Origin: a virus
Strand: one strand, 5' to 3'
Length of the DNA stretch: 64,000 nt
Virus record (IMG/VR): IMGVR_UViG_3300042901_002277
Below the pieces are notes generated by a model that made no database searches, was not told the origin of the DNA, and worked only from the letters and a program-made list of their open reading frames with translations. Made by a program: the position numbers and the translations under genes. This document shows, piece by piece, positions 23,431 to 52,474 of the stretch. The number at the start of each line of letters is the position of its first letter. Position 1 is the first letter of the stretch.

Positions 23431-23648
23431 TACAAGGTCCTTCCTGAGAACTCAAACCATTCATCATAGGTCATGCCAATAGTTCCGACAAACTCTGCAT
23501 TCTCATAGAAGTCCATGATAAAGCCCTCATGAGTGATTCCAATGTTGATGAACTTGGCGTTGACCTCGTCATAGCCACTCGTAAAAACGGTTACATCCTT
23601 GCGTGAATGCTGATTGACATCAAATGTCATCTTCTCATTGTCGCTCAC
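23430..23648 (-). CDS. Hypothetical protein
   Basis: Coupled within operon. Confidence 0.55.
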   Translation of the reverse strand: MSDNEKMTFDVNQHSRKDVTVFTSGYDEVNAKFINIGITHEGFIMDFYENAEFVGTIGMTYDEWFEFSGRTL

Positions 23649-24079
23649 TTGTCACCTGCCTCGTCCAGTCGTCGCTTGATGTTGACCATCTCAGCCAAGT
23701 ACTCATCAAATGACATTTGGAATGGGAACTCAATACCATCAACAATGTTTGAGAACAGGATGTTTCTGTTTTGCATTTGTTGCCAAAGGTCAAGGAATTT
23801 GTAGCCAGCACTCAGGTACTGGTCAAACGCTGTGAGCCACTCTTCAGCGATACCTACAGATACCCAAGAGTCCTCACCTTCTACCAAGGAGAGCGAACTG
23901 CCGTTATCCCAATCAACACCGATACACATAGCGCCAGCATTATCGTACGGCTCCCGTGTAACGGTCCCTAGGTCACCCTTGCGAATCCGTGTGTACGGGT
24001 CGTTAGTGCGGACCAATTTGATTCTTTCTCCGACAAGTGTCTTATTCATCATTCTCTCCTTAGTAGTAGTTGAGTACAT
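23645..24079 (-). CDS. DUF4314-like protein
   Basis: GERIKLV..NDPY..I..GDLGTV...IGVDWDNGSSLSLVEGED. Confidence 0.7.
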   Translation of the reverse strand: MYSTTTKERMMNKTLVGERIKLVRTNDPYTRIRKGDLGTVTREPYDNAGAMCIGVDWDNGSSLSLVEGEDSWVSVGIAEEWLTAFDQYLSAGYKFLDLWQQMQNRNILFSNIVDGIEFPFQMSFDEYLAEMVNIKRRLDEAGDK

Positions 24080-24110: not shown

Positions 24111-24329
24111 CTAGATTCCCTCTAGAACATCGGAAGGCTTCACCTTGAGTGCTCCGCAGAGCAGGATGAGTGACTGAAGGCTCGGTGAGAAGTGTCCGTT
24201 TTCAATCCGGTTGATGGTCTTGCGCTCGAGCCCCGCCTTCTTTGCCAACGCATCTTGCGAGAGTTCTCGCTCAATACGCAACTTACGAAGTCGTGCGCTA
24301 ACCCGTTGTTCTTTCTTTTGGGTATTCAT
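24111..24329 (-). CDS. XRE/Cro-family HTH regulator
   Basis: LRKLRIERELSQDALAKKAGLERKTINRIENGHFSPS. Confidence 0.9.
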   Translation of the reverse strand: MNTQKKEQRVSARLRKLRIERELSQDALAKKAGLERKTINRIENGHFSPSLQSLILLCGALKVKPSDVLEGI

Positions 24330-24359: not shown

Positions 24360-25025
24360 TCAGTTTGCACTGAAAATCTGTTGTGCGGTCATGGCTGTAT
24401 CCATGCCTTCTGCAATCTCAAATGTGAGAGCGTCTTTCCATTCCGAATACTTTTCGTCAAAGTTCTCGTCGTCGTCGTCGTATTCAGGTTGCCCCTGCAT
24501 TTCGTGTTCACCTTCTGAAACAATCTCGCCTTTGTGAAAGACCATGTACCCAGCAAAGAAATCTGCTTCCTCTGTGAAGTGCATGCCAAACACAAGTTCA
24601 GGGAATTGTTCGGAGATGTTCTTCATAAGACCAACCGCAGGGCTCCAAGCACTTTCCCAATACAGCGTTATTGAGTTGCTGTTCTCGTCAAATGTGTCCT
24701 CGTCAAAATCAACACGGCAAGCACCCCATTTGGTGTCCCAGTTCGCATTCGCCCAGTCGTACCAGTCCTTGTGACCGTACTTAGCGAGATTTGACTCTTG
24801 TTGCTTGCGGTGTTCTTCTGCCTTCTCTTCACCAACATATCCTGAAACTGTTTCGTGCAGTTCTGTTGGAATTGGGAATAGTTGGTTCATGTCCCATTCT
24901 GTTCTGTTCCATTCAGGAATTGCTTTCCACTCTTCAGTTTGCTCAATGCGAATAGCCTCAATGAACCGCTTCAGTTCCTTGTTGCTTCCACGAACTTCTC
25001 CGTATTGGTTGCACCAGTTAGGCAT
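24360..25025 (-). CDS. DUF1281/YubB ferredoxin-like domain protein
   Basis: MPNWC, WYDWANANWDTKW, ESAWSP motifs. Confidence 0.75.
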   Translation of the reverse strand: MPNWCNQYGEVRGSNKELKRFIEAIRIEQTEEWKAIPEWNRTEWDMNQLFPIPTELHETVSGYVGEEKAEEHRKQQESNLAKYGHKDWYDWANANWDTKWGACRVDFDEDTFDENSNSITLYWESAWSPAVGLMKNISEQFPELVFGMHFTEEADFFAGYMVFHKGEIVSEGEHEMQGQPEYDDDDENFDEKYSEWKDALTFEIAEGMDTAMTAQQIFSAN

Positions 25026-25586: not shown

Positions 25587-25731
25587 GTGAACTCCTTAGT
25601 AGTAGGTGAGTACCACTATAGCGACCGAGATACCAAATTTCCAAACTCTTCCACCACCGTCATGATAATGGGTAATACTTGACTCAATCTGAATTATGTG
25701 GTACAGCAGACCGGTGGGTGGCCCGAACCGG

Positions 25732-25745
25732 CGAACACATGTTCG
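25732..25745. promoter_or_regulatory. LexA (SOS/Cheo) box
   Basis: CGAAC-ACAT-GTTCG, intergenic. Confidence 0.75.
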
Positions 25746-25797
25746 CTCAGCCCCGGTGCTCATTGTGGCGGCCCGGCCGCCGGGGCTCTATGGTCAA

Positions 25798-26121
25798 TTA
25801 TTCGTCGTGAGCAATTACCAGGTTGCCGCCAACGATTTGCCAGCCGTCGTCATGAGTGTTCCAAACAAACGATAAAGCTTCTTTTATTCCATCTAGGTAA
25901 TAGAACACATCATCATCTAGAACACCGAAGTCGTCCCACTGTAGATAGACAGGGTCTTTACTGAATGATAAGTAGTAATGCAACAATTCACCCTCATCAA
26001 CCCAGTACACCTGTGCGTCCATGCCAACCAGCACGCCCTCTTCAGCGATTACATATTTCAGGTAATCCTTCAACAATTTCAGAGTAATAAGCGTCTTTCT
26101 AATCGTTGCTCTAATCATCAC
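25798..26121 (-). CDS. Hypothetical protein
   Basis: Coupled ORF. Confidence 0.55.
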   Translation of the reverse strand: MMIRATIRKTLITLKLLKDYLKYVIAEEGVLVGMDAQVYWVDEGELLHYYLSFSKDPVYLQWDDFGVLDDDVFYYLDGIKEALSFVWNTHDDGWQIVGGNLVIAHDE

Positions 26122-26438
26122 GCGCTCACTACATCTATGAGTTGCACGAATGAATCCAGTGGCTCTGCTTCATCAGGATACGCCCTCATGGCGTCGTCTA
26201 GGAACATTTGGTAAGCACCCAAGTCGTCACCTCTGAAGTAGTGATTCGCTCCACCATCTCCATAGTTCTCTACACGGCATGCAATAATTCCTTTTCTTAG
26301 AATTTGTGCCATCCAAGTAATTCCTCTTGAAGTCTCCATCTCTTGGATTACCTTGAAGTCGTACAGGCTTGCGATGTCGTCCACCGCAGGCTCTGTCACA
26401 AATAATTTCAGTGAGGGTGGAAGTGTTGAGTAAAGCAT
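26118..26438 (-). CDS. Hypothetical protein
   Basis: VENYGDGGAN motif; CAACTACTAACAAGGAG leader. Confidence 0.6.
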   Translation of the reverse strand: MLYSTLPPSLKLFVTEPAVDDIASLYDFKVIQEMETSRGITWMAQILRKGIIACRVENYGDGGANHYFRGDDLGAYQMFLDDAMRAYPDEAEPLDSFVQLIDVVSA

Positions 26439-26475
26439 GATTTCTCCTTGTTAGTAGTTGTTTGAATTCTAGTCG

Positions 26476-26994
26476 TCAGCAGATTTGGAATCCACCGCAG
26501 TTCTCTAGGAACTCTGCGAACCGCTTGACATTCTCCACATCAAACGGATAAGCGGACAGCCACGATTCCCTAGTGCCAATTCCATCACAGGCATTGCACC
26601 AGCCATGAGTGCGACCAGTAAGAATCTGCGCCTCGGGTGAGAGTTCTTTAGTAGGCATTCCCATTTCCACGCCGACCTCATCATTGCGAATGCCAGTGCA
26701 CTCACAGAGGTTGCATGCTTCACGGGGAAGCGAGGAACGCCATTCGTTGTAGGTCTGTGCGTACTTTTCTACCGTGCCATTTTCAAGGTCTATCTTGAGT
26801 GACCAAGCCAATGATTCAGCCAGTGCGTCGTCTAGCCCGTCACCGTCGTTTGAGTGCCACGATTCGCAACCGCTAGCAATGTCGTCATAGTTGGTGCAGA
26901 TAAAGTCTGCCAGTGGACGCCACCACCACACATTGTTGCGGAAGTATTCGCCCTTTTCATTCTTTGGCTTTACGCCATAGACATCCATACCCAT
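26476..26994 (-). CDS. Conserved phage-type protein with inserted CxxCxxxG Zn ribbon
   Basis: MGMDVYG..YFRNNVWWW, CNLCECTG..CNACDGIG, FLENCGGF. Confidence 0.7.
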   Translation of the reverse strand: MGMDVYGVKPKNEKGEYFRNNVWWWRPLADFICTNYDDIASGCESWHSNDGDGLDDALAESLAWSLKIDLENGTVEKYAQTYNEWRSSLPREACNLCECTGIRNDEVGVEMGMPTKELSPEAQILTGRTHGWCNACDGIGTRESWLSAYPFDVENVKRFAEFLENCGGFQIC

Positions 26995-27087
26995 TTTCTT
27001 GCTCCTTGTTAGTAGTAGTTAGGTGACTGAATCTTACAATACTGAATACCAAATTTCCAAAATCGAGAAGAGCCCCGCGCTCTCCCT

Positions 27088-27555
27088 TTACGCCTCAACC
27101 TTGTCAAACGGGCACTCGGCTACTTGACCGAATACAGCCTCGTACAGGTCACGCCCGTCTTGCCATTCACTCCAGTCTCCATCTGACGAGATACGGACAC
27201 AAGAGCCGTAGATTTCTTTCGCCCGAATGAGTATCGCAGTAACTACAGCGTCATACGGTTTCTGTGCAGTCTTGCAAAAATCAAAGATTTCAGGCTCATC
27301 TTTACGCCATTCAACTTGAGTTGGCAGTGCCTTCCAAGTAAAGGTTTCGTGAGACATATCATCTATGCCGTTGAAACTGAACTCTCCCTCTGTGAACTGT
27401 GGTTGAGTTTCGTTCTCTCCACTCCAGTCGCCAAGTTTTATGCCAATGCTCTGTGCGTGTTCGCAAATAGCCTTAGCGTCTAGTGCGAGTTTGCCGTACA
27501 TATAGGCAGACCCAGCGTTCTTTCGTGGTCGGTAGTTGTAATGCGTGTAACCCAT
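27088..27555 (-). CDS. Hypothetical phage protein
   Basis: MGYTHY..FCKTAQKPYD..ISSDG; degenerate promoter at 27600. Confidence 0.7.
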   Translation of the reverse strand: MGYTHYNYRPRKNAGSAYMYGKLALDAKAICEHAQSIGIKLGDWSGENETQPQFTEGEFSFNGIDDMSHETFTWKALPTQVEWRKDEPEIFDFCKTAQKPYDAVVTAILIRAKEIYGSCVRISSDGDWSEWQDGRDLYEAVFGQVAECPFDKVEA

Positions 27556-27603
27556 AGTTAGTGCCTTTCGTTAGTAGGTAGTAGTACCTTAGCAGACCCA
27601 ATA

Positions 27604-27807
27604 TCAGATTTCCAATTTTTTCTGTTCGTAGACCATGAACTCACCATCACTGTCACGGCTGATTCCAGTCACCCACATAGAGCGACCAATCTGCCCGTAG
27701 TCCTCTATTGCGTTCTGAACTTCCTCTACGGCAACGCCACAGCACTCGCTGTCGTTTTCAGCTTGCACATCAAGCGTCACCATTACTGTTACTCGGTAGG
27801 TGTTCAT
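27604..27807 (-). CDS. Hypothetical protein
   Basis: Coupled ORF. Confidence 0.55.
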   Translation of the reverse strand: MNTYRVTVMVTLDVQAENDSECCGVAVEEVQNAIEDYGQIGRSMWVTGISRDSDGEFMVYEQKKLEI

Positions 27808-28094
27808 TAGTAGTTACTCCAATCGTAGTTGTCGTTTTTGTGTGCGATTTCCTCGGAACATACTCCGATTACTTTTAGCGTTTCGCCGTCAATGACACGG
27901 CTACATTTCTCACAAAGATAGGTATCGCCGTCCCATTCTCCGTTGAGTGTTGGCGAGACAATCTCTCCAGTCTTTAGGCAAGAGTAAAAGCCCTCGTAGT
28001 TTGGTTGGTTGCCACATAGACACTGAAACCAATCAGTAGTTCCACCTATGTACTCCTCGTACAGTCGGTTATTCATACTCAACCTCTGTTCCAT
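27807..28094 (-). CDS. Cys-rich hypothetical protein
   Basis: CLCGN..CEKC. Confidence 0.55.
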   Translation of the reverse strand: MEQRLSMNNRLYEEYIGGTTDWFQCLCGNQPNYEGFYSCLKTGEIVSPTLNGEWDGDTYLCEKCSRVIDGETLKVIGVCSEEIAHKNDNYDWSNY

Positions 28095-28314
28095 AGTCGT
28101 GTATGCATTCGCTGTCGTACTCCTCTGCGTGGTCTTCCATTGTGCGGAAGTGGCAATTCTCGTTTATCCACTCATAGCGAGCGTCAGCGTCCCACTCATT
28201 CCACTCAAACGGAAGTTCCATTCCTTGTGGCATGTCGTAGTACTTGTAACGGGTGTACTTGACAAGCATGTGCTCATCAACGGTAACGGCAAAGCGTGTA
28301 GGTGTAGTAGTCAT
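28069..28314 (-). CDS. Hypothetical protein, leaderless
   Basis: ATG 6 nt after TACTAT of the 28335 promoter. Confidence 0.6.
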   Translation of the reverse strand: MTTTPTRFAVTVDEHMLVKYTRYKYYDMPQGMELPFEWNEWDADARYEWINENCHFRTMEDHAEEYDSECIHDYGTEVEYE

Positions 28315-28651
28315 GAGTACATAGTAGTACGCTGGATACCAAATTTCCAAAGTGCTTTCCGCCACCGTCAAGATAATAGAGGCTTATGGATATCTGTTGG
28401 CGATTTTTTTGCTCGCTCCGATTATTGCAAATATTTTTATTTTCTTGCAACTTTCTGGGAATTTTCTGGCTAGCCCCGCACGGCGTTCTGGCCGCACCGA
28501 GGCCGGGGCTCTTGGGGAAAATAGCTACCTTGTTATTTAGGTATCCATCAGATAACCGCTATTACCACAACCTGGGCAGTGTTCGGTATCTAATCTAATT
28601 TCTAATTGCTCTTCAGTGCTTACTGTTTCGCACCAATTACAGATAATCGTT

Positions 28652-28885
28652 TCAGGCGTTTTCATTAGTTGCCCACCGATTTTCGCTGTCATAGAAGCAA
28701 GTGTTACATACGAAGCCGTCTAGGTCGTTATCCCAGACTGGCTCACTCCCAAAGGTGCGTACGGTCATCTCCATTCCGCATGAGTCGCAATTAGCCCTAT
28801 CGCCACGAATATGAATTACGCCGTGTACGAGTGGCAGTGAGTTGATTTTTTCGATATATGCCTCGCTCATGTCGGTCACTCCCAA
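28652..28885 (-). CDS. Small Zn-ribbon protein
   Basis: CDSC..CNTC. Confidence 0.5.
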   Translation of the reverse strand: MGVTDMSEAYIEKINSLPLVHGVIHIRGDRANCDSCGMEMTVRTFGSEPVWDNDLDGFVCNTCFYDSENRWATNENA

Positions 28886-29145
28886 GCCCTATTGAGCAGT
28901 ATCCCTGCGAATGGGTTGGGGTACTTCACCTCGTCATTTAGCCAACGCTCACTATCGGAGTGTTGAGTTTCGCAGTCTCGGAATGTCTCAGTGGCGAACG
29001 CCTTGTCATCTTTCATGAGGCGCACCAGCAATTTACCAGTGCCGTCTTCCCAGACATCTAGTTGGTAGGTAGCGTCAATGCCACCGAACGGACCAGCTTG
29101 CTCACCGAATACGGATAATTTATGAGTCATCGTTACAGTGCTCAT
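28876..29145 (-). CDS. Hypothetical protein
   Basis: Coupled ORF. Confidence 0.55.
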   Translation of the reverse strand: MSTVTMTHKLSVFGEQAGPFGGIDATYQLDVWEDGTGKLLVRLMKDDKAFATETFRDCETQHSDSERWLNDEVKYPNPFAGILLNRAWE

Positions 29146-29435
29146 TACTTACCACCCCTTTCGGAGTAGTAAGCAACGGCTTCGGTCAGTGTGGTGCAGT
29201 AGTCACCGCTATAGCGCTCCCAGCCACTAGGGCGAGCCACAACGGTCCATACGGCGAACTTGTGGAATGGATTAGTTGGGTTATAGCAGACCGTAATCCA
29301 TGAAGCGTACGAGTCACCAATTTCACGGTCATTCTTTTTCGTGAGTGCCAAGACGGTTATTTCAGTGGCGATTACTTCGCCAAGTTTTAGTTCAGCGAAT
29401 GTTAGGTCCACTGAATTGTCGGTTAGTAGGTACAA
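29145..29435 (-). CDS. Hypothetical protein, paralog of 34108..34389
   Basis: TTG start after GAAAGGGA; YASW...KF.VWTV.A...W....G.YC......Y..RGGK. Confidence 0.65.
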   Translation of the reverse strand: MYLLTDNSVDLTFAELKLGEVIATEITVLALTKKNDREIGDSYASWITVCYNPTNPFHKFAVWTVVARPSGWERYSGDYCTTLTEAVAYYSERGGK

Positions 29436-29626
29436 GGTATTCCCTTTCGTAGTAGTTGGGATAGACACTACAACACCGAATACCAAATTTCCAAAATTAT
29501 TGAGAGCCCCGCAGCACTAGATGCTGGGGTGTGCGGCGGGGCTTTTCGCACGCATAAAGGAAGCCCTGCCCACCAGTTACGGCAGACAGGGCTTCGGTTG
29601 TTCGTAGGGGTGAAAGGGGTAAAGCC

Positions 29627-30067
29627 CTAGAACAAATCCATTACTGCTTCGGCAAGTGCGCCACGAGCATTACCGTCATCGGTAATTGTCTCATCAGGCG
29701 TATCAGAGAAGCGCATAACGCTGGCACAACCGTCTTTGCTGGCGAACACCACTAGGCGTACACGCCTGCGTTCAGGGTGTTGCGATGGTGGTACTTGGTC
29801 ATCATCGCTTTGCCCCTCAACAATAGGTGAAGCCCAACCGCAAGTAAGTACTGCGATGTAATCGCTTACCTTTGCTACGGCTCGGCTGTCATCGCTATTT
29901 AGCAAGTCATAAACATCGCCGTGTTCACCTGCTAGAACAAGTGCCACTCTGCCGTCATCGGTTTCGTTGATAGAAAAGAACATTGCCTGCTTTAGGTCAA
30001 AGTCCCCGTTTAGTTCGTCAGATATTGCCTTTTCGGCTGTCTCTGCCTTATGTAGTAAATCGCTCAT
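29627..30067 (-). CDS. Hypothetical protein
   Basis: SD GAAAGGA before MSDLL; PSQHPERRRVRL motif. Confidence 0.65.
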   Translation of the reverse strand: MSDLLHKAETAEKAISDELNGDFDLKQAMFFSINETDDGRVALVLAGEHGDVYDLLNSDDSRAVAKVSDYIAVLTCGWASPIVEGQSDDDQVPPSQHPERRRVRLVVFASKDGCASVMRFSDTPDETITDDGNARGALAEAVMDLF

Positions 30068-30395
30068 CGGTAGTTCCTTTCGGTAGTAGTTGATTAGATA
30101 AGCACCACTCACATTACTACCCCCGATACCAAATTTCCAAAATACGGGTAGCCCATACAAGAGCCCCGCTGAACTAATCTCTTGGGGTGAACGAACTAGA
30201 GCAAGCGAGAAGCCGGGGCTTATCAAAAAGAATTGCCGAGTTTGATATCGAGTTGTACAACCTTTGGGTACAGATAAGAGCCGTAGAGGAAAGTAACGCC
30301 GAGTTCACTGCCGACAATTTACGCAAGAGTTTCAGGGTAATAAAAAGAGAGGGCTAGAGATTTCTCTCTAACCCCCTCTCGGTAGGTGGATAGGA

Positions 30396-30794
30396 CTAGA
30401 CCGCTTCGGCGGTTTCGGTAACTGCGCCTTCGGCAAGGTCACGGATAACGATACGGGTGTAAGCCGTTGGCTTCACACACGCAGTTTCCACTTCCTCACT
30501 GATATCGCCAGCCTTACGAGCCTTATCAAAAGCCTTCGGCTCAACGGCAGTCTTGGTGACTGCGCCGAACACTTTGGCATTGACAAGTTCTGAAAGTGTT
30601 GCGACATCAAAGTTGCGACGAATTGCCTCAACAAGTTGGACACACTTGTCGTTCGCTTCCCAAGAGTTCACGCCTGCTTCGGCGTACGCTTCGGAAAGCA
30701 ATTCCTTCGCAACAGCGACGGCTTTCTCGGCAGAAGCGAGAGCCTCAACGGCACTCACATACTGGCGAGCAACGGCAGAAAGTTGCTTAGACAT
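30396..30794 (-). CDS. Hypothetical cassette protein
   Basis: Own promoter at 30848 and terminator hairpin at about 30342-30380. Confidence 0.7.
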   Translation of the reverse strand: MSKQLSAVARQYVSAVEALASAEKAVAVAKELLSEAYAEAGVNSWEANDKCVQLVEAIRRNFDVATLSELVNAKVFGAVTKTAVEPKAFDKARKAGDISEEVETACVKPTAYTRIVIRDLAEGAVTETAEAV

Positions 30795-30991
30795 ATTTAT
30801 TCACCCCCTTAGGTGTCTGTAGTAGTTGATACCACTATACACCCCACGATACCAAATTTCCAAAATCGCTTGACGCCATACAGAGCCCCGCCCTTGCCAT
30901 TGCTTGGTTGAGTTGCGGGGCTGTGAACGTGCGCGAAAAAAAGAGGGGCAGGTTTCCCCACCCCTCTCTCCTTTTCAGTAGCCAGTTGTGA

Positions 30992-31423
30992 CTAGAGGTA
31001 CTCCGACACCGACTTGAGAGTAGATGCGTTCACATACTCCTGCTCGGTCATCTTGAGGACACGGATTGCCTGCTTGATTTCCGTTGTCTCGCGCTCGTAC
31101 CTGTGGTCAGGATACGCCTCAGGGCATTGAGGTTCTGTCGGAAGTGCCGTCTTTGGCAACTCCATAGTGACTTGGAACTCCGCTGTCTTGCTCTTTGAGT
31201 TGTTGCTGGAACTGCTGTACCAACGGTTACGGCTTGCGTCAGTCACTACGCCTTTGCTCTTGACGAGTTTGAGGATAGCCAAGTTGTAGGCTTCCTTTGC
31301 TTTCTCGTAGAGAGCCTGCTCTTTTTCTTGATTGGCAAAACGCTGTTCACGCTCGGTCAATGCTTTCTCTAGTGATGAGATGAGCGTACTCACTTTCACC
31401 TTTACGGATATGGACTTACTCAT
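30992..31423 (-). CDS. Hypothetical coiled-coil cassette protein
   Basis: Own promoter at 31478 and terminator at about 30936-30967. Confidence 0.7.
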   Translation of the reverse strand: MSKSISVKVKVSTLISSLEKALTEREQRFANQEKEQALYEKAKEAYNLAILKLVKSKGVVTDASRNRWYSSSSNNSKSKTAEFQVTMELPKTALPTEPQCPEAYPDHRYERETTEIKQAIRVLKMTEQEYVNASTLKSVSEYL

Positions 31424-31589
31424 TATGCCCTGCCTTTCGTAGTAGTTGATTGGGGCACTAATGACATTACTACACCCGATACCAGATTTCCAAAGCCCTT
31501 TCCGCCACCGTCACCTAAAGACGGATACTTGACAAACCACCTCGCACCTGCTAGTGCACCGATTTTTTTCGGCGATTTTTTTGGTGGGG

Positions 31590-31603
31590 CGAACATATGT
31601 TCG
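31590..31603. promoter_or_regulatory. LexA (SOS/Cheo) box
   Basis: CGAAC-ATAT-GTTCG, intergenic. Confidence 0.75.
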
Positions 31604-31704
31604 GTCAGCCCCGCAGTACCAGTAGCGAAGCGGGGCTCTGTGAAAAAAATAGGCCTAGAGCGGAAAGCCCCAGGCCCATTCTGTCTCTAGCTCTTTTTCG
31701 AGCG

Positions 31705-32109
31705 TCAGTCTCTCCACTCGGTAATGACTGGCGTCAAGTCCATGCTCTCTCTGCTGTTGGTTATCATGACGCCCAATTCCAAGTCATGCGAAGCCTCTAG
31801 AGCCATGTTGGCGAAGTGCTCTGTCATGAAGTCGCTCGGAACATTGGTGTCATAGCCTTCATTATCAGCGATACCGACCAGCACGGCGTCACCAGCAAGA
31901 ACCCTGCGGAACAACAAAGACGTGATGTTGTTTGTCGGCAAGTCAATGAGCAAGCCTTCGTCATGGACATAGGCAGTAACGCCCATTTCCCAATCGTTCA
32001 CGCAGTCAAACCAGCCACCGACTAGTTCCTGAATAACGGTGTGTGCGCCGTCACGAGGTAACTCAATAGCGGTTACTTCACCGCTTGTCTTTACAAGTAC
32101 TGCTTTCAT
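31705..32109 (-). CDS. DUF3846-like protein
   Basis: IQELVGGWFDCV...YVHDEGLL..LPTN...LAGDAVLVG. Confidence 0.7.
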   Translation of the reverse strand: MKAVLVKTSGEVTAIELPRDGAHTVIQELVGGWFDCVNDWEMGVTAYVHDEGLLIDLPTNNITSLLFRRVLAGDAVLVGIADNEGYDTNVPSDFMTEHFANMALEASHDLELGVMITNSRESMDLTPVITEWRD

Positions 32110-32561
32110 TTTTTCCCTCTTTCGTAGTAGTTGATTAGATATTACAGGAACGGATACTAAATTTCCAAAACCAAATGGTTGTGGTTATCGGTAAGGACAA
32201 CCACAACCAAATTTGGTTAGTGGACTAAATTACTTTCAGGAACAATCGCAAGTGGGTCGAATTTCCCCGAACCATTTACTCGAACCATGTAACGTAGGTG
32301 ATTGTCGTAACCAACAACCACGCCACTGAATGCGTTGCCGTGACCGTCACGGAACGTAATCGGCGAACCCTCGTCTTTCATAAGCACCCCTTTCGTTGAG
32401 TTGTTAGTACCCTATCAGACCCGATACCAAATTTCCAAAATAACGATAGCCCCGCAGTTGCTGCTACCAATTACCGCTGCGTACTGATTACTCCCGGGGC
32501 TTATATGTAACAGAGATTCGACCCCCACTATTACGGAAGAGGTCGGTGGTAATTGGGTGGA

Positions 32562-32867
32562 CTAGCTACTGTTCTTTAGTGCCCTGACCATTCGCTGTAT
32601 TTTTTTAGCAGCAGGGCTATCAATTTGCGTCACGCAATAACCCAGCTCGTCTAGCTTGTCAAAAAAGCCCCACCAATCTATTTTCTCCTCATTGGCATAC
32701 CAATCGTCATACAGCGACTCCACTAGCTCAATGCAGGTGTCGGTAATGTCGCTCGCTTCAACAATGTTCACTGACTCACTCATTACGCCCCTACTTCCTG
32801 TTGCGCGGTAAGAGATTTGCCATACCTGTTGTATGTACCGTTTCGTGTGTGCTGACCTACTTCGCAT
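32562..32867 (-). CDS. Hypothetical protein (true start likely MSESV)
   Basis: ORF in cassette. Confidence 0.5.
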   Translation of the reverse strand: MRSRSAHTKRYIQQVWQISYRATGSRGVMSESVNIVEASDITDTCIELVESLYDDWYANEEKIDWWGFFDKLDELGYCVTQIDSPAAKKIQRMVRALKNSS

Positions 32868-32974
32868 AGGAAGTACATAGTCTCGCCATTGGTCATTACT
32901 TCCATATCTACAATATGAGCCAGTGTTTCTTTGCCGTTCAAGCTGAACGACACTAGTTGGTCTAGTTCAAACAT
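32783..32974 (-). CDS. Hypothetical protein
   Basis: SD GAAAAGGGG; promoter at 33017. Confidence 0.55.
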   Translation of the reverse strand: MFELDQLVSFSLNGKETLAHIVDMEVMTNGETMYFLCEVGQHTRNGTYNRYGKSLTAQQEVGA

Positions 32975-33669
32975 TGCTATCCCCTTTCATTTGGATACCC
33001 CCACTCTATATCACTGGATACCAAATTTCCAAAATCATATTCAGCCCCGCTTCATCCGGTCGCCGCAATTCTTTTTGCCGCAATGCCCGGGGCTATTGAA
33101 ATGGAACGCGCCGCATATTTTGTTTTTATACGCGAAAAAGCCCACCGCACATTTCGCACGGTGGGCTTTACTCGAATTGCTGTTACTTACTTAGACTGCT
33201 GATTTACTCGAAGCTTGTTCGCTAACCCTGTTGGGAAGCCAACCTCGCCTCGTTGCACAACGCCAGTGTTCGACGCTGGTTTGCGCTTTTTCTTTGGCTT
33301 GTTGCTCTCGTTCATATTCACCCCCAATCCCTTTCGTAAGAGCAACACTACAGCATGAGATACCAAATTTCCATTGCGCAGCGGGGCTTCGTTGCAGCAA
33401 GCATTTATCGCTGCGTAATTATTTGTGAGACATGAACGACAAATGATTCACCCATGTACTCAACTCGAGCAAGTTGTTGCTGCATGTCGTGATAGCCAAC
33501 AAAAACAACCGCAGCATGCCCTGTTGTTTTTCTACTTGTTTTCTTTTCTTTGTGGTATCCGAATGACACTGGCACAAAAACTAATTCACCGCTTTGCATT
33601 TTTTTCCTTTCGATAGATTCCTTTTTCAAATAGTGGTTTCTGTTGCCAAGTACCACTGGACTCCGTTTG

Positions 33670-33912
33670 TTAGACGGTGATGGTTCCACCTTCCCAAATG
33701 CCTCGGGTGCGGTGTCCTACCAGTGGATACTCATAGTTGAGGTATCCAAGTGGCAAGTCCGCAGCGAAGCGAGTGGTCGTGATGACGGTCGCCATGTCAA
33801 TGCCACAGCGCTCCAAGTCACGCACAAAGGACAGAATCAGGTGTGTGTAAACCACACGCTGACGAGTCATCTGTCCATCGTGGAACTGAAGAATGCTCTT
33901 TTTCATATTCAC
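33670..33912 (-). CDS. Hypothetical protein
   Basis: SD GAAAGGGGG; promoter at 33973. Confidence 0.55.
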   Translation of the reverse strand: MNMKKSILQFHDGQMTRQRVVYTHLILSFVRDLERCGIDMATVITTTRFAADLPLGYLNYEYPLVGHRTRGIWEGGTITV

Positions 33913-34107
33913 CCCCTTTCAAAGAAGCGTGGTTCGAGTGGTTCTCGAACGCTGCACCACATTACTACGCTCGATACCAAATTTCCAAAATAGAAGCAGC
34001 TCGATTTAGCCCCGCAGCACACGTTGGTAGACAAAAAGAATAACGGGGCTTACGTACAAGAAAAGCGACCCGAAGGTCGCTCTTCCCGAACTTTCCGACT
34101 TGCTGAA

Positions 34108-34389
34108 CTACTTGCCACCTCGTGACTCGTAGTGCTTCACAGCGTCAACGATTGACGTGCAGTAGTTTCCGCTCTCACGCACCCAGCCGTAGTCCTCGGT
34201 CGCAATCACTGTCCACACTACGAACTTCGCGTGTGGGTCGTTTGTGACTTCGCAGATGGCAACCCATGATGCGTAGATGATACCGACCATGCGGTCTGAT
34301 TTTTTCGTGCATGCAATCACTCGCACACCCGCTGCGATTTCCTCGCCGAACTTCAACTCACTTGCTTCGGTCACCTTGATGGTATCCAT
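34108..34389 (-). CDS. Hypothetical protein, paralog of 29145..29435
   Basis: SD GAAAGGGG; shared motifs. Confidence 0.65.
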   Translation of the reverse strand: MDTIKVTEASELKFGEEIAAGVRVIACTKKSDRMVGIIYASWVAICEVTNDPHAKFVVWTVIATEDYGWVRESGNYCTSIVDAVKHYESRGGK

Positions 34390-34819
34390 GTCGTTCCCCT
34401 TTCGTGGGCTTGTTTTTATGACAACCACATCTTAGTACACGTGATACCAAATTTCCAAAATGGTCAGAGCGAAAATGAGCCCCGGCTTTACTCCTCGTCG
34501 CCTTCATGCTCGTAATCCGATGGGCAATAGTCATACCTATCAGGGTTTGCTCTGTACTCCTCACGGTACTCCTCTGTTGTCTTGCCAGTACGGCAGGCTT
34601 CTGCTTCCTGCTTCATCTCGTGCATGAGGTTGGTGTCTAGGTAATTGGTCATCGCATACTCCCTGCGTACATTCTGTCCTGCAGGTCTGCATGGTGATAA
34701 TCGCACAATGAGACAGTGATAATGCCACTTTCGTACTGACGTACAGTGCCACCGCATTTATCTGCGCTGTCTGCATTGGTGTTGAGTTCTCTACATTGAG
34801 TTGTTGGTGTATTCACTGG

Positions 34820-35197
34820 TTATTCCTTTCCGATTAGAACTTTATTGCAATTCTTGATTGCCGTAATGCACTGGTTGATAAGTGACGTAAACGCCCTGTA
34901 CGACATGACGCTATCTCGTTCGTCGTATCGTGCACACTCTAAATCCTGTTTACGCCACAGCAATTCTTTTTTCAGAGCTTTTATAGCGTCAATAGATACA
35001 TCTACGGCAACGGTGTTGTTTAGTCCACGCTTTACAACTATACGGCGTGGTGCAATAACAAACTCTGCGAACGCTTTTGTATCATCGTCCATTTCCTCAC
35101 CCGATGCTATTTGGCGTTCTACGTCCTCACAGCGAGGCGTCATATCACCATCTATGACACTAGAGAACCTAATCTCGAATACTTGTTTTGTTTCCAT
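34820..35197 (-). CDS. Hypothetical protein
   Basis: SD GAAAGGGG before METKQ; promoter at 35241. Confidence 0.6.
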   Translation of the reverse strand: METKQVFEIRFSSVIDGDMTPRCEDVERQIASGEEMDDDTKAFAEFVIAPRRIVVKRGLNNTVAVDVSIDAIKALKKELLWRKQDLECARYDERDSVMSYRAFTSLINQCITAIKNCNKVLIGKE

Positions 35198-35374
35198 TTC
35201 GTTATCCCCTTTCATTGGATATGTACATATTACTAAACGAGATACCAAATTTCCAAATCACACAATAAGCCCCGGTATCCGGACGCCGCTTACCGGGAAT
35301 GAAGCGGGGCTCTCGGCCAAATAAGTGGCGCAGGTTTCCCCACGCCACCTAATCTGTTGGACTAACTTCGCTAA

Positions 35375-35671
35375 CTAATCGGCGTCGTAATAGTCTTCAG
35401 GATTGTCGCACCATGCGTCTAGGTGGTGGGATTGAATGATTGCCCATGCAGGCGCACTTGTCTTACCCTTCCACGACACACCTTCAGGCAGTTCAATGAG
35501 TTCATCGCCACTGAACGTTGCGTTGTAACTGTCAATGGCGTTCAAGCACACTGGGACCATTGACAACGGCACTGGTGGATAGTGATTACTTTGCAGGTGG
35601 ATTGCTAGGGCGTTATCTAGTGATATGCCCATGTCGTTATCGGCTAATTCTTGCGCTAACTGATTACCCAT
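35375..35671 (-). CDS. Hypothetical phage protein
   Basis: HLQSNHYPPVP..IELPEGV..HHLDAW; structured leader upstream. Confidence 0.65.
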   Translation of the reverse strand: MGNQLAQELADNDMGISLDNALAIHLQSNHYPPVPLSMVPVCLNAIDSYNATFSGDELIELPEGVSWKGKTSAPAWAIIQSHHLDAWCDNPEDYYDAD

Positions 35672-35700
35672 GATTGCCCCCTTCAGGACTGTAGTAGTGA

Positions 35701-35774
35701 AGTTGGTGGGAGCCTGTCGGGAGACATTTCCATCCCCCGATTAGCGTTATTGGACACTCTTCAGTCCCACCAAC
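35701..35774 (-). promoter_or_regulatory. Structured 5' leader (three-way junction)
   Basis: GTTGGTGGGA/TCCCACCAAC closing stem with two inner hairpins, between the 35796 promoter and the SD. Confidence 0.55.
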
Positions 35775-35941
35775 AATGAATACTTTACAACACTGGATAC
35801 CAAATTTCCAAAGTGCGACTGGCCACCCCTGCGCCTTCAAGAGCGTGGTTTAAGCCCCGCGTATCAACTGGCTTGAGTATTGGAATGCCGGGGCTATCTG
35901 ACTAAAAAGTCGAGCAACCGATTGGCTGCCCGACTTTTGTT

Positions 35942-36145
35942 TCAGTCGATTTGGATTTTGTCAAACACTTCGGCTCGAGCATTGAGCATCGCCCAATGAA
36001 AAGCGTCCATGAAAATCTGCTGCTTCTCTGCCGACCGAAACTCTCGCTCGGCGTGGGCCCGAGCCTCGGCGGTCTTAACCGCCAAGAGCCCGACCCACCA
36101 GTTGGCCTTCTCGTTCATTGGATTTTGTACAACTCGTAAATCCAA
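35942..36145 (-). CDS. Hypothetical protein
   Basis: ORF in cassette. Confidence 0.45.
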   Translation of the reverse strand: MDLRVVQNPMNEKANWWVGLLAVKTAEARAHAEREFRSAEKQQIFMDAFHWAMLNARAEVFDKIQID

Positions 36146-36339
36146 CCCGTGCCGCCGCCGTAGGTGTACCTCTCGCCGATGCTGCTCTTCATGGCGTCAA
36201 GCGCGCTGTCGAGCATGAACCAAGCATCCTCTTCGTACGTCTCGTCCTCGGCGTTCCTGATTGCCTCGGTGAACAACTCGAGTTGGACCTTCACCTCCTC
36301 GATTATTTCCTTGACTGTCTTCACCTTTTCTGCTTCCAT
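36115..36339 (-). CDS. Hypothetical protein
   Basis: SD GAAAAGGGG; promoter at 36406. Confidence 0.6.
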   Translation of the reverse strand: MEAEKVKTVKEIIEEVKVQLELFTEAIRNAEDETYEEDAWFMLDSALDAMKSSIGERYTYGGGTGWIYELYKIQ

Positions 36340-36359
36340 GACTTTCCCCTTTTCTCGAA

Positions 36360-36375
36360 TGTTCCACGTGGAACA
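36360..36375. promoter_or_regulatory. parS: Chromosomal-type parS site
   Basis: Perfect palindrome TGTTCCACGTGGAACA (extends to 20 bp) matching the TGTTNCACGTGNAACA consensus. Confidence 0.7.
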
Positions 36376-36628
36376 TTTCCTTACGAGACCAATACTAGTA
36401 CACCCGATACCAAATTTCCAAATTCAAACACAGCCCCGCAAAAGTTTTTTTCATTTAACATACAGATGACATACAGGTAACATACAAATTTTCAGCAGCA
36501 GAAGGGTATGCGGGGCTATTTTGGGCAAAAAATAAACCACACCAAAACTCTACGCAATTTGAAAGGGGTAAAACGCGGAGTAATGGTGTGGTTATTTATT
36601 AGTAGGTATTTCTACCCACTAAAACTTG

Positions 36629-36967
36629 CTACACAATACGAGAGTGTAGTGGTGTCTCAATGTAGATGGTAGGTCGGTCTGAGAACTTGTCCTCAAATAC
36701 TCCGAGCAAGTATGGTGCTACTTCCTCGTTGTACCCATCTGCGATACCGCAAGCCTGTGACTTGGATAGACATGGTAGGTCACGGTAGAGAAAGTCTGAA
36801 CCATCTCCAGTTGGTGACTGAAAGTAAATGCGTACTGCCCATTCTGTAGTTACTCCAAACTCTTTCATGAGTTGTTTTACTACTTCGGCACTAACAATAG
36901 AACCTTTTCCCGATTTCATTACTTGCCTACCTTTCCAGTAGTGAGTGTTTGTTCTAGCACTAGCCAA
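36629..36967 (-). CDS. Hypothetical protein (start likely MKSGK)
   Basis: Coupled ORF. Confidence 0.5.
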   Translation of the reverse strand: MASARTNTHYWKGRQVMKSGKGSIVSAEVVKQLMKEFGVTTEWAVRIYFQSPTGDGSDFLYRDLPCLSKSQACGIADGYNEEVAPYLLGVFEDKFSDRPTIYIETPLHSRIV

Positions 36968-37167
36968 GAGTGACCAGTACTTGTGTTTGCGTGTATTTGG
37001 AAACTGTAAGTGTTGTAGTCGCCTACGCTCTCCCAGTACTCCAAAGCCTCGTCAGTTGCCAACCAAGCCTCACACTCTTTACGAGTGTCAGCCTCAAACG
37101 CTGGCGTGTCGCTATCTGGTAGACAGCCTGCGCTAGCCCACCAAACCTGATAAATCGTATGTTTCAT
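36919..37167 (-). CDS. Hypothetical protein
   Basis: AGCLPDSD motif; SD GAAAGGGG. Confidence 0.6.
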   Translation of the reverse strand: MKHTIYQVWWASAGCLPDSDTPAFEADTRKECEAWLATDEALEYWESVGDYNTYSFQIHANTSTGHSWLVLEQTLTTGKVGK

Positions 37168-37505
37168 AATTTCCCCTTTCCGAGAAACTTACGGAGATAC
37201 TTTCCCCGTTGAGATAGATAGTACTACCCCTGATACCAAATTTCCAAAATCACTTTTTACGCTTTATTACTGCGTAGATATAGGTAAAGATAACGCCACT
37301 AAGAAACCCAATGACCAATCCTTGTACATACATAACTACTTCCACGATTTTCCCTTTCCGTTGTAGGTGATACTAAATTACAGGCCTGTAGTGATTATGT
37401 CAAGGATTTCGATACAGCCCCGCGTTTCCGGCTGCGCCGCTCTAGCCCCCGGGGCTTTGCTCTAGAAAGAGAGTAGCAACCGTTGTGGTCACTACTCCCT
37501 TCCGA

Positions 37506-37814
37506 CTAGCAGGTGAAGTAATCGTATAGATACTGACGAGCCTCGTCAGAGAGTGCGTCCTCGTCAAGTACGAGATACTTCCCAGAGCCATTGCAATCAT
37601 CACAGCGCTCGTCATAGAGCCCTGAGATGTAGTTCTCACGGAACTCGTCATCTTGCTCATTCCACTCGTCAGCCGAATATGCGCCGAACCTGTTGGAGTG
37701 ACCACCAGAGCCACGACAAAGGTCGCAGATAGCCCATTCCTCATGAATAGAGCAACGTCCTATCTCCTCGTCAGCAATCGCCTGACGAATAATCTCAGCA
37801 TGAGTAGTTTTCAT
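37506..37814 (-). CDS. DnaJ-type CxxCxGxG Zn-finger protein
   Basis: CDLCRGSG, CDDCNGSG. Confidence 0.65.
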   Translation of the reverse strand: MKTTHAEIIRQAIADEEIGRCSIHEEWAICDLCRGSGGHSNRFGAYSADEWNEQDDEFRENYISGLYDERCDDCNGSGKYLVLDEDALSDEARQYLYDYFTC

Positions 37815-37999
37815 AAAATAACCCCTTTTCTAGTAGTTCCCAATAGTTTATTACACGAGATACTAAGTTTCCAAAATACTGGTGGCACACCCAGTCACAT
37901 AGAGCATGGGTCAAGCCCCGCATTTGAGTGTTGTTGTAGGTAGAGCCGGGGCTATCGAAAAGTTTTAGCCAGGTGAACAGGCTAAAACCATCTTGCAGC

Positions 38000-38170
38000 T
38001 CATTCGTAATCAAGCCCATCCATAAAGGCTTCGTTGTCCGAATACCACGCAAGGTCGTCTTCCTGTATGAGGTGACCATCTAGTGTGTACTCTCCGTCGT
38101 CCCACGGATTGAGCTTGGCCTCGCGGCGCTCTGCTTGCTTTGCTGTTTCGTATTGCTCGTTGTTGTCCAT
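38000..38170 (-). CDS. Small acidic protein, leaderless (not in ORF track)
   Basis: MDNNEQYETAK...DGLDYE*; ATG 6 nt after TAAATT of the 38191 promoter. Confidence 0.55.
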   Translation of the reverse strand: MDNNEQYETAKQAERREAKLNPWDDGEYTLDGHLIQEDDLAWYSDNEAFMDGLDYE

Positions 38171-38358
38171 GCCTCAAATTTACAACATGAGATACCAAAT
38201 TTCTAAAATCAAGAGGGGTCGAATGGACAAGATGAGCTGGCCGCCTTTCGCAATCAGTAGCCCCGGCTATCCGGTAATCCAGTAGGAGCGGCGGGGCTGA
38301 TGAAAAATTTTAGGGGTGTAACAAGGTTTTATTCCCTGTTACACCCCCAACGGGGGGA

Positions 38359-38676
38359 TTAGAACTCGTAGGAGTAGTAGTACCTGCGACCACTCAAGTG
38401 AAGGACAGCCCAACTATCCAAGGAGTCGCCAACCTGAACCCACCTTCCGTTTTTACGGAGTGTAAAGCAAGTGGTTGGGTTGTTTGGGTTTGGTGTAATT
38501 TCCCAGTCGTTACTGTAAGGCTTCGCACCTTCGGCTGGCTTGACATCATCTTGCTGAACAATAATTTTCTTGCCATTTTCGCTAACGAAAACAATCGTTA
38601 CTGAGTGGGTGTCCACTCCATTGCTAACGTGTGCGCCGTTTCCGACTACTGGCTTCGTTCTTTCTTTGGTTTCCAT
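38359..38676 (-). CDS. Hypothetical protein
   Basis: FTLRKNGRWV..GRRYY; own promoter and terminator. Confidence 0.65.
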   Translation of the reverse strand: METKERTKPVVGNGAHVSNGVDTHSVTIVFVSENGKKIIVQQDDVKPAEGAKPYSNDWEITPNPNNPTTCFTLRKNGRWVQVGDSLDSWAVLHLSGRRYYYSYEF

Positions 38677-38756
38677 TGTGTCCCCTTTCGTGGAACTCGT
38701 TTACAAATGAAACATTACAGCATGAGATACCAAATTTCCAAAATAGAACGAACAGG

Positions 38757-38770
38757 CGAACAGGTGTTCG
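38757..38770. promoter_or_regulatory. LexA (SOS/Cheo) box
   Basis: CGAAC-AGGT-GTTCG just upstream of the 38726 promoter. Confidence 0.75.
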
Positions 38771-38881
38771 GTCTTTATGGGTTAGCCCCGGTATACCGGC
38801 AGACTACGACGGGGCTTTGCTCTAGAAAGAGAGTGTTACCGTTTCTGGTAACACCCTCTTTGATTATGGTGAGCCAGCTGG

Positions 38882-39139: not shown

Positions 39140-39205
39140 ATAAACCCCTTTCATGGGTGGTAGGTACCCCAAACATTACAGTACGAGATACCAAATTTCC
39201 AAAAG

Positions 39206-39219
39206 CGAACACTTGTTCG
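39206..39219. promoter_or_regulatory. LexA (SOS/Cheo) box
   Basis: CGAAC-ACTT-GTTCG abutting the 39187 promoter. Confidence 0.75.
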
Positions 39220-39376
39220 CATAGCCCCGGCTACTGACTTATGGAAGCACTTTCTGTTTCCATTAGGTGAAGCCGAATATCAAGAAGCAAGTCCTGCATT
39301 TCGCTTGACGCCACAAGTTCACGGCTAGAGATATTGACTAGCGCCTTATCAAGAAGTGTGATTATTTCTTTTTCGT

Positions 39377-39559
39377 TCATTGTGGGCAGTCCTCGTATGG
39401 GTTGGGGTTTCCTTCATTGTCCTCGCAAGAACAGAAGCCGAATAATTCTACTTGAGTTTCGTGAGTGAGTTCAGTCAAGTCCTCGTATGACGGGGAGCCC
39501 CGTAGTTCCTCTATCACTAAACTCCAAAAGTCTACGAAAAGTTTCTCTTGTGAGTTCAC
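39377..39559 (-). CDS. Small hypothetical protein
   Basis: SD GAAAGGGAG. Confidence 0.5.
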   Translation of the reverse strand: MNSQEKLFVDFWSLVIEELRGSPSYEDLTELTHETQVELFGFCSCEDNEGNPNPYEDCPQ

Positions 39560-40259: not shown

Positions 40260-40349
40260 TACTTATCCCCTTTCTAAGGGCTTGTTGTTGTCTCTATCGT
40301 AGGGCAACGGATACCAAATTTCAAAATCCACAAATAGCCCCGGTGGGTG

Positions 40350-41146: not shown

Positions 41147-41420
41147 TGCTCTCCCTTTCAGTAGGTAACTAAATCATATCCGAGCCAATACCAAATTTCA
41201 ACGACCCCAAGGCGGGGCTATTTCGAGTTAGCGTGCAATTTGGAAATCTGGTATCACGGATAGTACGATTTACTTGTCCACGAGAAAAGGGGAAAGAAAT
41301 GAAAGTATCATCACACACGAAAACTAAGTGCGTAGAGTGCGGTCGGGTATTTGACCTGCTAGACGAGGAACAGGCAAATGAGTTTTTCTACGGTCACGAT
41401 TGCGAAGAGGGGGGTGAATA

Positions 41421-44981: not shown

Positions 44982-45032
44982 CCCCGGCCTATCGTTTTAG
45001 AAATTTGGTATTTGGCTTGCTAAGCTTGCGTT

Positions 45033-52411: not shown

Positions 52412-52474
<63 letters not shown>

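Follow-up and report, generated by a model that had tools for sequence, protein, structure and literature searches.

Stoperators of Cluster A mycobacteriophages, the sites of a monomeric repressor of the L5 gp71 type, are asymmetric words of 13 to 14 bp that function in an orientation-dependent manner; they are oriented with transcription, and reversal abolishes repression (PMC9283540). The extended start-associated sequences (ESAS) of Cluster K mycobacteriophages are imperfect 17-bp inverted repeats of unknown function with spacers of 4 to 13 bp; they lie, in one orientation, immediately upstream of a start-associated sequence (13 bp) that is located at the start codon (PMC3203893). In T4-like phages, the promoter early stem-loop (PeSL), a composite terminator/promoter sequence at the borders of cassettes, mediates indels by homologous recombination (PMC2839356, PMC4122927). 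Here, we analyzed an exact 7-mer, AGCCCCG, that occurs singly and in inverted pairs (AGCCCCG-spacer-CGGGGCT) in a 64,000-nucleotide stretch of phage DNA (the window), which is the minus strand of positions 64,562 to 128,561 of the 160,449-bp IMG/VR virus record IMGVR_UViG_3300042901_002277. Direct terminal repeats are present in this record, which is rated complete. An initial annotation of the window had stated that no described element has this consensus, and the statement held as far as searches of the literature and of a phage collection went; the literature search for the motif returned unrelated primer matches only.

The initial annotation had listed 16 inverted pairs with their spacers, and a pattern search matched every coordinate and every length exactly, with 16 exact pairs separated by 17 to 72 nucleotides (nt) (Table 1). 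With the gap restricted to 10 to 40 nt, 14 exact pairs were found in the window, whereas 100 dinucleotide shuffles yielded none. AGCCCCG is present in 57 copies on the two strands of the window (4.4 ± 2 expected), and these are made up of the 16 convergent pairs and 25 solo sites, which include all the solo half-sites listed earlier. Few half-sites had been noticed outside 15 to 50 kb; in fact, all copies within the window fall between 15.5 and 49.8 kb. The same confinement is seen in the complete genome, where all 57 copies lie between 75 and 115 kb and the other 120 kb contain none (3 to 6 expected). The word is also strict. Each of its 21 one-mismatch variants is at background level, and the flanks of 551 nonredundant sites from the phage clade have essentially zero information beyond the seven bases.

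The clade was assembled from IMG/VR, in which the arm-plus-promoter pattern identified seven loci and the neighboring HARP-SNF2 helicase identified 56 loci, with amino acid identities from 98% down to 52%. AGCCCCG is the top or near-top overrepresented 7-mer in most of the large loci examined; example loci contain 38, 36, 43, and 21 copies per ~20 kb (about 2 expected), the 11.8-kb locus L053 contains 29, and five other long records carry 56, 60, 60, 56, and 40 copies. For three of these records, the site positions listed lie within a stretch of 30 to 45 kb. The early promoter consensus is TTGGAAATTTGGTATC in the window, TTGTAAATCTGATATC in L016, TTGTATCTGACCTGTG in L030, and TTGCTAAC...TACGCT in L053, and the GC content of the motif-bearing relatives ranges from 0.47 to 0.62. 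Since relatives with another promoter consensus and another GC content keep the motif, AGCCCCG outlives promoter turnover. The early promoters of one genome share a long consensus that includes the spacer between the -35 and -10 elements, and this consensus differs in L016 despite a 98% identical SNF2 protein; such a concerted change of some 30 promoters implies a coevolving trans factor. In L052, L055, and L058, AGTCCCG is enriched (14 to 16 copies per locus) beside AGCCCCG, so that the word there is AGYCCCG. The distant relative L060 (IMGVR_UViG_3300027983_000042) has no AGCCCCG; a 19-nt word, TGCGTnnTTCTCCGGATT, is present in 21 copies on both strands between positions 448 and 13354, with three convergent pairs 12 to 20 bp apart. 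Along with L060, L062 and L063 are counted as lineages in which the motif is lacking or has been switched.

In relatives with 82 to 85% identity, the sites were intact in 21 of 23, 10 of 12, and 8 of 10 aligned cases, whereas control 7-mers were intact in only 29 to 44% of cases in the same relatives. The intact sites include solo sites inside the SNF2 gene, and solo sites were conserved as well as paired ones. Selection acts on the DNA word itself and not on a structure. The spacers behave differently from the arms: orthologous spacers often have the same length (25/25, 45/45, 17/17, 29/29, and 72/72 nt), but their identity in most pairs is 0.36 to 0.82 beside flanks with 0.75 to 0.97. No spacer had a second match in the genome or similarity to another spacer. 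We also considered invertible spacers and rejected them, since direct alignment was better than reverse-complement alignment at orthologous pairs, except for three poorly aligned cases.

A census of neighboring sites in the clade, from which redundant contexts had been removed, revealed that, among neighbors less than 50 bp apart, 71 pairs are convergent (AGCCCCG...CGGGGCT), one is divergent, and one is tandem. The shortest spacer in the clade is 17 bp, and this is also the commonest length (exactly 17 bp in 22 cases and 18 bp in 7); a second class comprises 24 to 31 bp, and lengths run up to 81 bp and beyond. The two classes, 17 to 18 and 24 to 31 bp, are the only ones seen on reading the length counts, to which no period test was applied. 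An asymmetric binder reaching about 8 bp inward would explain both the exclusively convergent order and the 17-bp minimum.

The initial annotation had located the pairs behind one cassette and ahead of the promoter of the following one, and this arrangement was found for the array genes, which are on the minus strand. In gene sense, a unit consists of the stop codon, an intrinsic terminator (a G+C hairpin with a T-run), the AGCCCCG-spacer-CGGGGCT pair, a promoter of the type TTGGAA-ATTTGGTATC...(18-nt spacer)-TAnnnT, and a leader with CAACTACTAC and a GAAAGG-type ribosome site before the ATG. A separate canonical terminator is located ahead of most pairs, and the terminator-side arm starts 12 to 13 nt past the base of the terminator stem, i.e., a few bases beyond the T-run, in 21 of 47 cases and 6 to 20 nt past it in most others. 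On the other side, 31 promoter copies (window promoters 21321 to 49698) share the region with the 7-mer, and the distances from the promoter-side arm to the -35 element cluster at 9 to 11, 19 to 21, 39 to 44, and 52 to 53 bp. Indeed, the resultant length at a period of 10.5 bp was 0.76 (76 contexts, two promoter types), a value that no random set equalled, and 0.82 with the L030-type promoter alone (13 contexts). At 10 bp from the promoter, the arm is found in both orientations. Many of the 25 solo sites likewise lie 0 to 10 nt past a stop codon and about 10 bp ahead of the next promoter; others are within open reading frames (ORFs), in either orientation.

A further spacing rule concerns the perfect palindrome CGAAC-N4-GTTCG, which is of the LexA type of Gram-positive bacteria and actinobacteria. 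The 160-kb genome has four such boxes, all of them in the early array and adjoining an arm (Table 1), and across the clade 12 of 24 nonredundant boxes are separated by exactly 3 bp from AGCCCCG, on its 5' (outer) side. The boxes suggest SOS-linked control of some early promoters. Taken together, the phasing to the promoter, the spacing to the terminator, and the 3-bp spacing to the LexA-like box argue for duplex DNA bound by proteins. This agrees with the earlier preference for DNA sites of a protein over RNA stems, which is further borne out by the strict 7-mer, the conserved solo sites within ORFs, the convergent order and its 17-bp minimum, the unstructured spacers, and stems that are never extended.

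From this grammar, its conservation, its localization, and the composite with the LexA-like box, we infer the existence and origin of a reader protein, its action as a roadblock or insulator, and its timing. AGCCCCG would be the double-stranded DNA site of one sequence-specific protein, the convergent pairs would make up a boundary complex, and the whole set would serve as a common handle for insulation and/or coordinate shut-off; we assign this reading a probability of roughly 0.5. The reader might be encoded by the phage clade or be a conserved actinobacterial factor. It would bind the 7-mer asymmetrically, with its body covering about 8 bp on the 3' (inner) side and the 5' (outer) side left free. 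Two inward-facing copies would then be joined in a boundary complex on the DNA between tandem early cassettes that alone escapes transcription; the first would closely follow the intrinsic terminator of the preceding cassette, and the second would precede the next sigma-A-type promoter by an integral number of helical turns. Such a complex would insulate neighboring units, preventing read-through and promoter occlusion from either side, and pairs and solo sites together would give the 35- to 40-kb early/middle region a single handle, for example, for a stoperator-like coordinate shut-off. The absence of the word from the other 120 kb fits a factor that must not touch late genes, the motif swap in L060 fits a change of reader specificity, and a grammar that is conserved across the clade while promoters turn over indicates a trans-acting factor and a possible mechanism of insulation or coordinate shut-off. 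The architectural or insulator role proposed at first would fit the placement of the pairs between terminator and promoter.

Several observations weigh against this reading. When about 50 window proteins were scanned against Pfam and PHROGs, most had no match or matched domains of unknown function (DUFs), and no clear sequence-specific DNA binder emerged except a WhiB-like factor; sigma-70 region 2 had no match in the complete genome. Three genes co-occur with the motif (Table 1), being located beside the SNF2 gene in motif-bearing relatives and missing at the L060 locus, but their products had no informative family or PDB match. Transcription factors do not usually reject every mismatch, a behavior that would be more typical of base pairing or of restriction-modification enzymes. 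L049, L052, L043, and L055 carry most of their sites within ORFs without a sense/antisense bias (17 sense versus 18 antisense copies within ORFs in L049), and a permanent roadblock at such sites would harm the expression of those very genes; binding in L049-type loci would therefore need temporal control. In the GC-rich L053, the distances from arm to promoter are 54 to 64 bp without clear helical phasing, and another conserved box lies between the two. Finally, many of the counted contexts are orthologous, so that the effective sample is smaller and the statistics overstate independence. A more specific proposal is put forward only tentatively: a polar monomeric binder would turn exact 7-bp inward pairs into bidirectional boundary elements, the sites would mark a temporal gene class as one regulatory domain, and this Ter/CTCF-like grammar might be coupled to the host LexA through the 3-bp composite.

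If AGCCCCG were instead recognized by an enzyme of the restriction-modification type (such as a methyltransferase, a nickase, or a type IIS/III-like nuclease requiring sites in head-to-head order), the early region would be marked or cut, which would provide an epigenetic timing mark or recombinogenic or replicative ends. An exact asymmetric 7-mer with uninformative flanks and no tolerance of mismatches is what such an enzyme would recognize, the AGYCCCG degeneracy in three lineages resembles restriction-modification recognition sequences, and strictly head-to-head pairs with a fixed minimum spacing as well as the lack of sites in the rest of the genome fit equally. However, the N6_N4, N6, and C5 DNA methyltransferase families had no match in the complete genome, one host enzyme is unlikely to be common to phages with GC contents of 0.47 to 0.62, and neither promoter phasing nor placement after terminators nor the 3-bp composite with the LexA-like box would be expected. 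We therefore regard an enzyme of this kind as unlikely.

A comparably low probability is given to the arms as recombination sites, or as stretches of microhomology, at the borders of mobile promoter-gene-terminator cassettes, whose shuffling they would drive in a manner resembling T4 PeSLs or integron attC sites. Close relatives indeed differ by the insertion, loss, and relocation of whole cassettes, homology breakpoints fall inside pairs in 8 of 47 cases (2.8 expected, an approximately 3-fold enrichment), and some spacers look replaced rather than diverged (identity of 0.36 to 0.6 beside flanks of 0.85 to 0.97). On the other hand, 39 of the 47 breakpoints are elsewhere, and exchange between copies of the promoter accounts for at least one indel. 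The tyrosine recombinase family PF00589 had no match in the complete genome, whereas all control genomes matched. The spacers are not inverted between relatives, the arms are unlike attC cores and have no internal dyad, and the conserved sites within ORFs and the promoter phasing would be left unexplained. Reading of the spacer ends revealed no target-site duplications, which also led us to reject transposon-like cassettes. Hence, of the recombination sites considered in the initial annotation, the breakpoint enrichment remains, while the location of most breakpoints, the lack of a tyrosine recombinase, and the lack of inversions speak against them.

Even less probable is a hairpin in RNA or single-stranded DNA, made of a G+C stem of 7 bp below a loop of variable size, that acts as a backup terminator, a 3' stabilizer, or a processing or protein-binding site. 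The 7-bp stem was predicted in 15 of the 16 pairs (-12 to -23 kcal/mol), and the pairs directly follow intrinsic terminators. The loops, however, are at least 17 nt long and unstructured (the mean folding z-score of 83 nonredundant clade spacers was 0.07), and no T-run follows the pair on either strand. The base just inside the arms had been reported as complementary in 5 of 16 pairs, a count that we reproduced; in the clade it is Watson-Crick complementary in 34 of 83 pairs, so that pairing next to the arms does not exceed chance, and deeper positions are at chance as well. Thus, the stem is invariant, shows no covariation, and does not extend past 7 bp, and since it is never extended or compensated, selection for a hairpin is argued against. 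Moreover, 25 of the 57 sites are solo and yet equally conserved, an RNA stem would form just as readily with small loops and from the reverse order, CGGGGCT..AGCCCCG, which is missing at short range, the 10.5-bp promoter phasing and the 3-bp LexA-box spacing are attributes of a DNA duplex, and DNA upstream of promoters and downstream of terminators is the least transcribed. The proposal of a dispersed CRISPR-like system in which the spacers would serve as guides or memory units, prompted by the uniqueness of the spacers and a length mode of 25 to 30 nt, is close to refuted, since the repeats are inverted rather than direct, the pairs lie outside transcription units, the lengths run from 17 to 81 nt and beyond with 17 the commonest in the clade, no spacer matches anything else in the genome or another spacer, and the comparison of orthologous spacers that had been called for revealed drift like that of neutral sequence.

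The arms, neighboring signals, and genes are compiled in Table 1. The 14-mer TTCCVCCACCGTCA (plus strand; TGACGGTGGBGGAA in gene sense) occurs in seven copies, all in the same orientation, a few base pairs upstream of some early promoters, and the GC-rich L053 has a related box, GGTGGCGAGACAGC, at the equivalent position. In L053 and L048, which are both GC rich, an AT-rich box, (T/C)(G/T)AATAAAGATAGC, is located between the terminator hairpin and the pair AGCCCCGC-N15-GCGGGGCT (e.g., L053 2820-2835 and 3350-3365) and is sometimes repeated, inverted, on the other side of the pair.

Table 1. Sites, signals, and genes in the window. Distances are from the arm to the next promoter; promoter coordinates are window coordinates, and the promoters that follow the pairs are on the minus strand. 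L-numbers denote relatives.
Feature	Position	Strand	Spacer (nt)	Promoter, distance	Remarks
Pair	25749-25787		25	25629-25644, 104 bp	LexA-like box 3 bp outside arm
Pair	28472-28510		25	28335-28350, 121 bp	
Pair	29505-29543		25	29479-29494, 10 bp	Intrinsic terminator upstream (gene sense)
Pair	30162-30220		45	30125-30140, 21 bp	
Pair	30884-30922		25	30848-30863, 20 bp	Follows terminator GAGGGGTGGGGAAACCTGCCCCTC with T-run
Pair	31607-31637		17	31478-31493, 113 bp	Clade minimum spacer; LexA-like box 3 bp outside
Pair	32448-32501		40	32423-32438, 9 bp	
Pair	33043-33094		38	33017-33032, 10 bp	
Pair	34008-34050		29	33973-33988, 19 bp	
Pair	35268-35311		30	35241-35256, 11 bp	
Pair	35853-35895		29	35796-35811, 41 bp	
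Pair	36432-36517		72	36406-36421, 10 bp	Spacer 93-94% conserved in L009 and L016
Pair	37416-37456		27		Promoter-like site (next row) 12 bp past promoter-side arm
Promoter-like site	37380-37415	-			Canonical TTGACA-N17-TAATTT, unlike cassette promoter consensus
Pair	37914-37953		26	37859-37874, 39 bp	
Pair	38259-38298		26	38191-38206, 52 bp	
Pair	38784-38816		19	38726-38741, 42 bp	LexA-like box between arm and promoter
Long convergent pair	44980-45266		273 (bp, interior)		Between stop codons of two convergent genes; interior with cassette-type promoter (44997-45012) and ORF-free region; both arms kept in relatives
Solo	15561-15567	-			Intergenic
Solo	17069-17075	+			Within ORF
Two tandem solos	21466-21472, 21511-21517	-		21379 and 21321	Intergenic, upstream of these promoters
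Solo	22732-22738	+			
Solo	24229-24235	+			Within ORF; kept in L011
Solo	27071-27077	+		27045-27060, 10 bp	10 nt past stop codon; kept in L011
Solo	33382-33388	-		33359-33374, 7 bp	Upstream of promoter; orientation opposite to other promoter-side arms
Solo	34478-34484	+		34443-34458, 19 bp	3 nt past stop codon; kept in L011
Solo	39223-39229	+		39187-39202	1 nt past stop codon; LexA-like box 3 bp outside
Solo	39496-39502	+			Within ORF; not kept in relatives; may be chance or a recent copy
Solo	40336-40342	+		40310-40325, 10 bp	7 nt past stop codon; kept in 5 relatives
Solo	41213-41219	-		10 bp	Upstream of first minus-strand promoter of array (TTGAAATTTGGTATT); kept in 5 relatives
Solo	41677-41683	-			Within ORF; kept in relatives
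Solo	42394-42400	+			Within ORF; not kept, AGCCTCG in relatives
Solo	42623-42629	+			Kept in relatives
Solo	43142-43148	-			5' part of HARP-SNF2 helicase gene; kept in relatives
Solo	43825-43831	+			Inside SNF2 gene; kept in relatives
Solo	44290-44296	-			Inside SNF2 gene; kept in relatives
Solo	45709-45715	-			Between stop of DUF932 gene and next start codon; kept in relatives
Solo	46859-46865	+			5 nt past stop codon
Solo	47590-47596	-			Kept in L010
Solo	49751-49757	-		49683-49698, 52 bp	Upstream of promoter
LexA-like palindrome	25732-25745				CGAACACATGTTCG; 3 bp outside arm at 25749
LexA-like palindrome	31590-31603				CGAACATATGTTCG; 3 bp outside arm at 31607
LexA-like palindrome	38757-38770				CGAACAGGTGTTCG; 13 bp outside arm at 38784
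LexA-like palindrome	39206-39219				CGAACACTTGTTCG; 3 bp outside solo site at 39223
14-mer copies	15457, 15707, 18106, 22587, 25649, 28357, 31500				
Carbamoyltransferase gene	5806-7233	-			NodU/CmcH type
DUF1599 protein gene	16355-16975	-			"Nucleotide modification associated domain 1"
Early-cassette DUF protein genes	23645-24052, 24360-25025, 30992-31423, 31705-32109, 45745-46770				Last one, DUF932
WhiB-like factor gene	41975-42292	+			Pfam E = 1.4e-12
SNF2-family helicase gene	43059-44981	+			Two N-terminal HARP-like repeats
Co-occurrence candidates	42279-42503, 45266-45688, 45745-46770				Last one, DUF932 gene
tRNA-Met (CAT) gene	52411-52484	-			

The uncultured 160-kb phage has no close cultured relative at the DNA level in the phage collection searched; the best protein matches in cultured phages are to Arthrobacter phages, at about 35% identity. 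An actinobacterial host is indicated by the WhiB-like gene and by best protein matches in phages of Arthrobacter, Gordonia, and Microbacterium, and the WhiB-like factor could modulate early promoters. The SNF2-family helicase has the motif FPYD...W.APL twice, in its two HARP-like repeats, and is probably a SMARCAL1-like annealing helicase; its gene is kept throughout the clade and harbors three conserved AGCCCCG sites. Products of the early cassettes include DUF4314, DUF1281_C (Api92-like), DUF4315 (weak match), DUF3846, and DUF932 proteins. Domains of these types are common in the leading regions of conjugative elements, a distribution that would suggest anti-defense cargo. The carbamoyltransferase and the DUF1599 protein hint at a possible modification of DNA bases by the phage. 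A tRNA-Met gene is also present.

Dense arrays of strong early promoters that all point in the same direction are subject to transcriptional interference, and little is known of how phages solve this problem. The grammar described here is simple and regular: an exact 7-mer, convergent at no less than 17 bp, at a phased distance from the promoter and a preferred distance from the terminator, in some 40 to 60 copies. It is a practical marker with which to delimit early regions in related metagenomic phage genomes, and, if the boundary function is true, it would supply a compact insulator module with which to build synthetic operons for Actinobacteria.

Three classes of known elements can be set apart from the pairs by their structure. 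Intrinsic terminators have a short G+C-rich hairpin with a small loop and a T-run directly after it, whereas the pairs have unstructured loops of 17 to 72 nt and no T-run on either strand. Clustered regularly interspaced short palindromic repeat (CRISPR) arrays consist of direct repeats of 21 to 48 nt at regular spacing with unique spacers; here, the repeats are 7 nt long and inverted, and the pairs are 0.3 to 2.7 kb apart with genes between them. Repetitive extragenic palindromes (REP/REPIN) and miniature inverted-repeat transposable elements have a conserved interior or an imperfect palindrome of 20 to 40 nt, with copies related over their whole length, but the spacers here are mutually unrelated and only the 7-mers are common, with neither a conserved interior nor whole-length kinship.

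Other systems are closer. Integron attC sites have the cores RYYYAAC/GTTRRRY and an imperfectly palindromic folding interior (L boxes), and they require a tyrosine integrase. As in attC, 7-bp inverted cores end an element of variable length that separates cassettes in a one-directional array; unlike in attC, the arms are AGCCCCG/CGGGGCT, there is no folding dyad and no PF00589 match, and the cassettes carry their own promoters. With the T4 PeSL cassettes, the phage shares arrays of small, fast-evolving early genes, each with a conserved early promoter and a terminator, which are gained, lost, and moved between close relatives. The AGCCCCG pair, however, is an extra, exact inverted element between terminator and promoter, and only 8 of 47 breakpoints lie in pairs. 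ESAS likewise occur in actinophages, but the element described here has exact 7-mer arms, spacers of at least 17 bp, and a position ahead of the promoter instead of at the start codon. As with Cluster A stoperators, an actinophage has short asymmetric words in dozens of copies at promoters, in intergenic gaps, and within transcription units; the stoperator reader is a monomer whose footprint exceeds the conserved word, and both systems are proposed to act on initiation and elongation. Stoperators, in contrast, tolerate some variation and occur throughout the genome, whereas the exact 7-mer is restricted to one 40-kb region, has no sense/antisense bias, and forms inward-facing pairs at least 17 bp apart. 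Neither a tyrosine integrase, the only integrase family searched, nor a recognizable stoperator-type repressor was found in the phage.

Polar barriers are used as opposed pairs in the Tus-Ter fork traps, by TTF-I/Reb1 at the terminator and promoter of ribosomal DNA, and at convergent CTCF sites. In these systems, as would be the case in ours, the orientation of an asymmetric site matters, and opposed sites, or sites that mark where one unit ends and the following one starts, serve as boundaries; their sites are much longer, there is no homology or common sequence, and the systems come from different domains of life. The analogy concerns a possible working mode only. By its sequence features, the AGCCCCG element would belong with the dispersed short cis-acting protein sites of phage genomes, among which its well-defined grammar is unusual.

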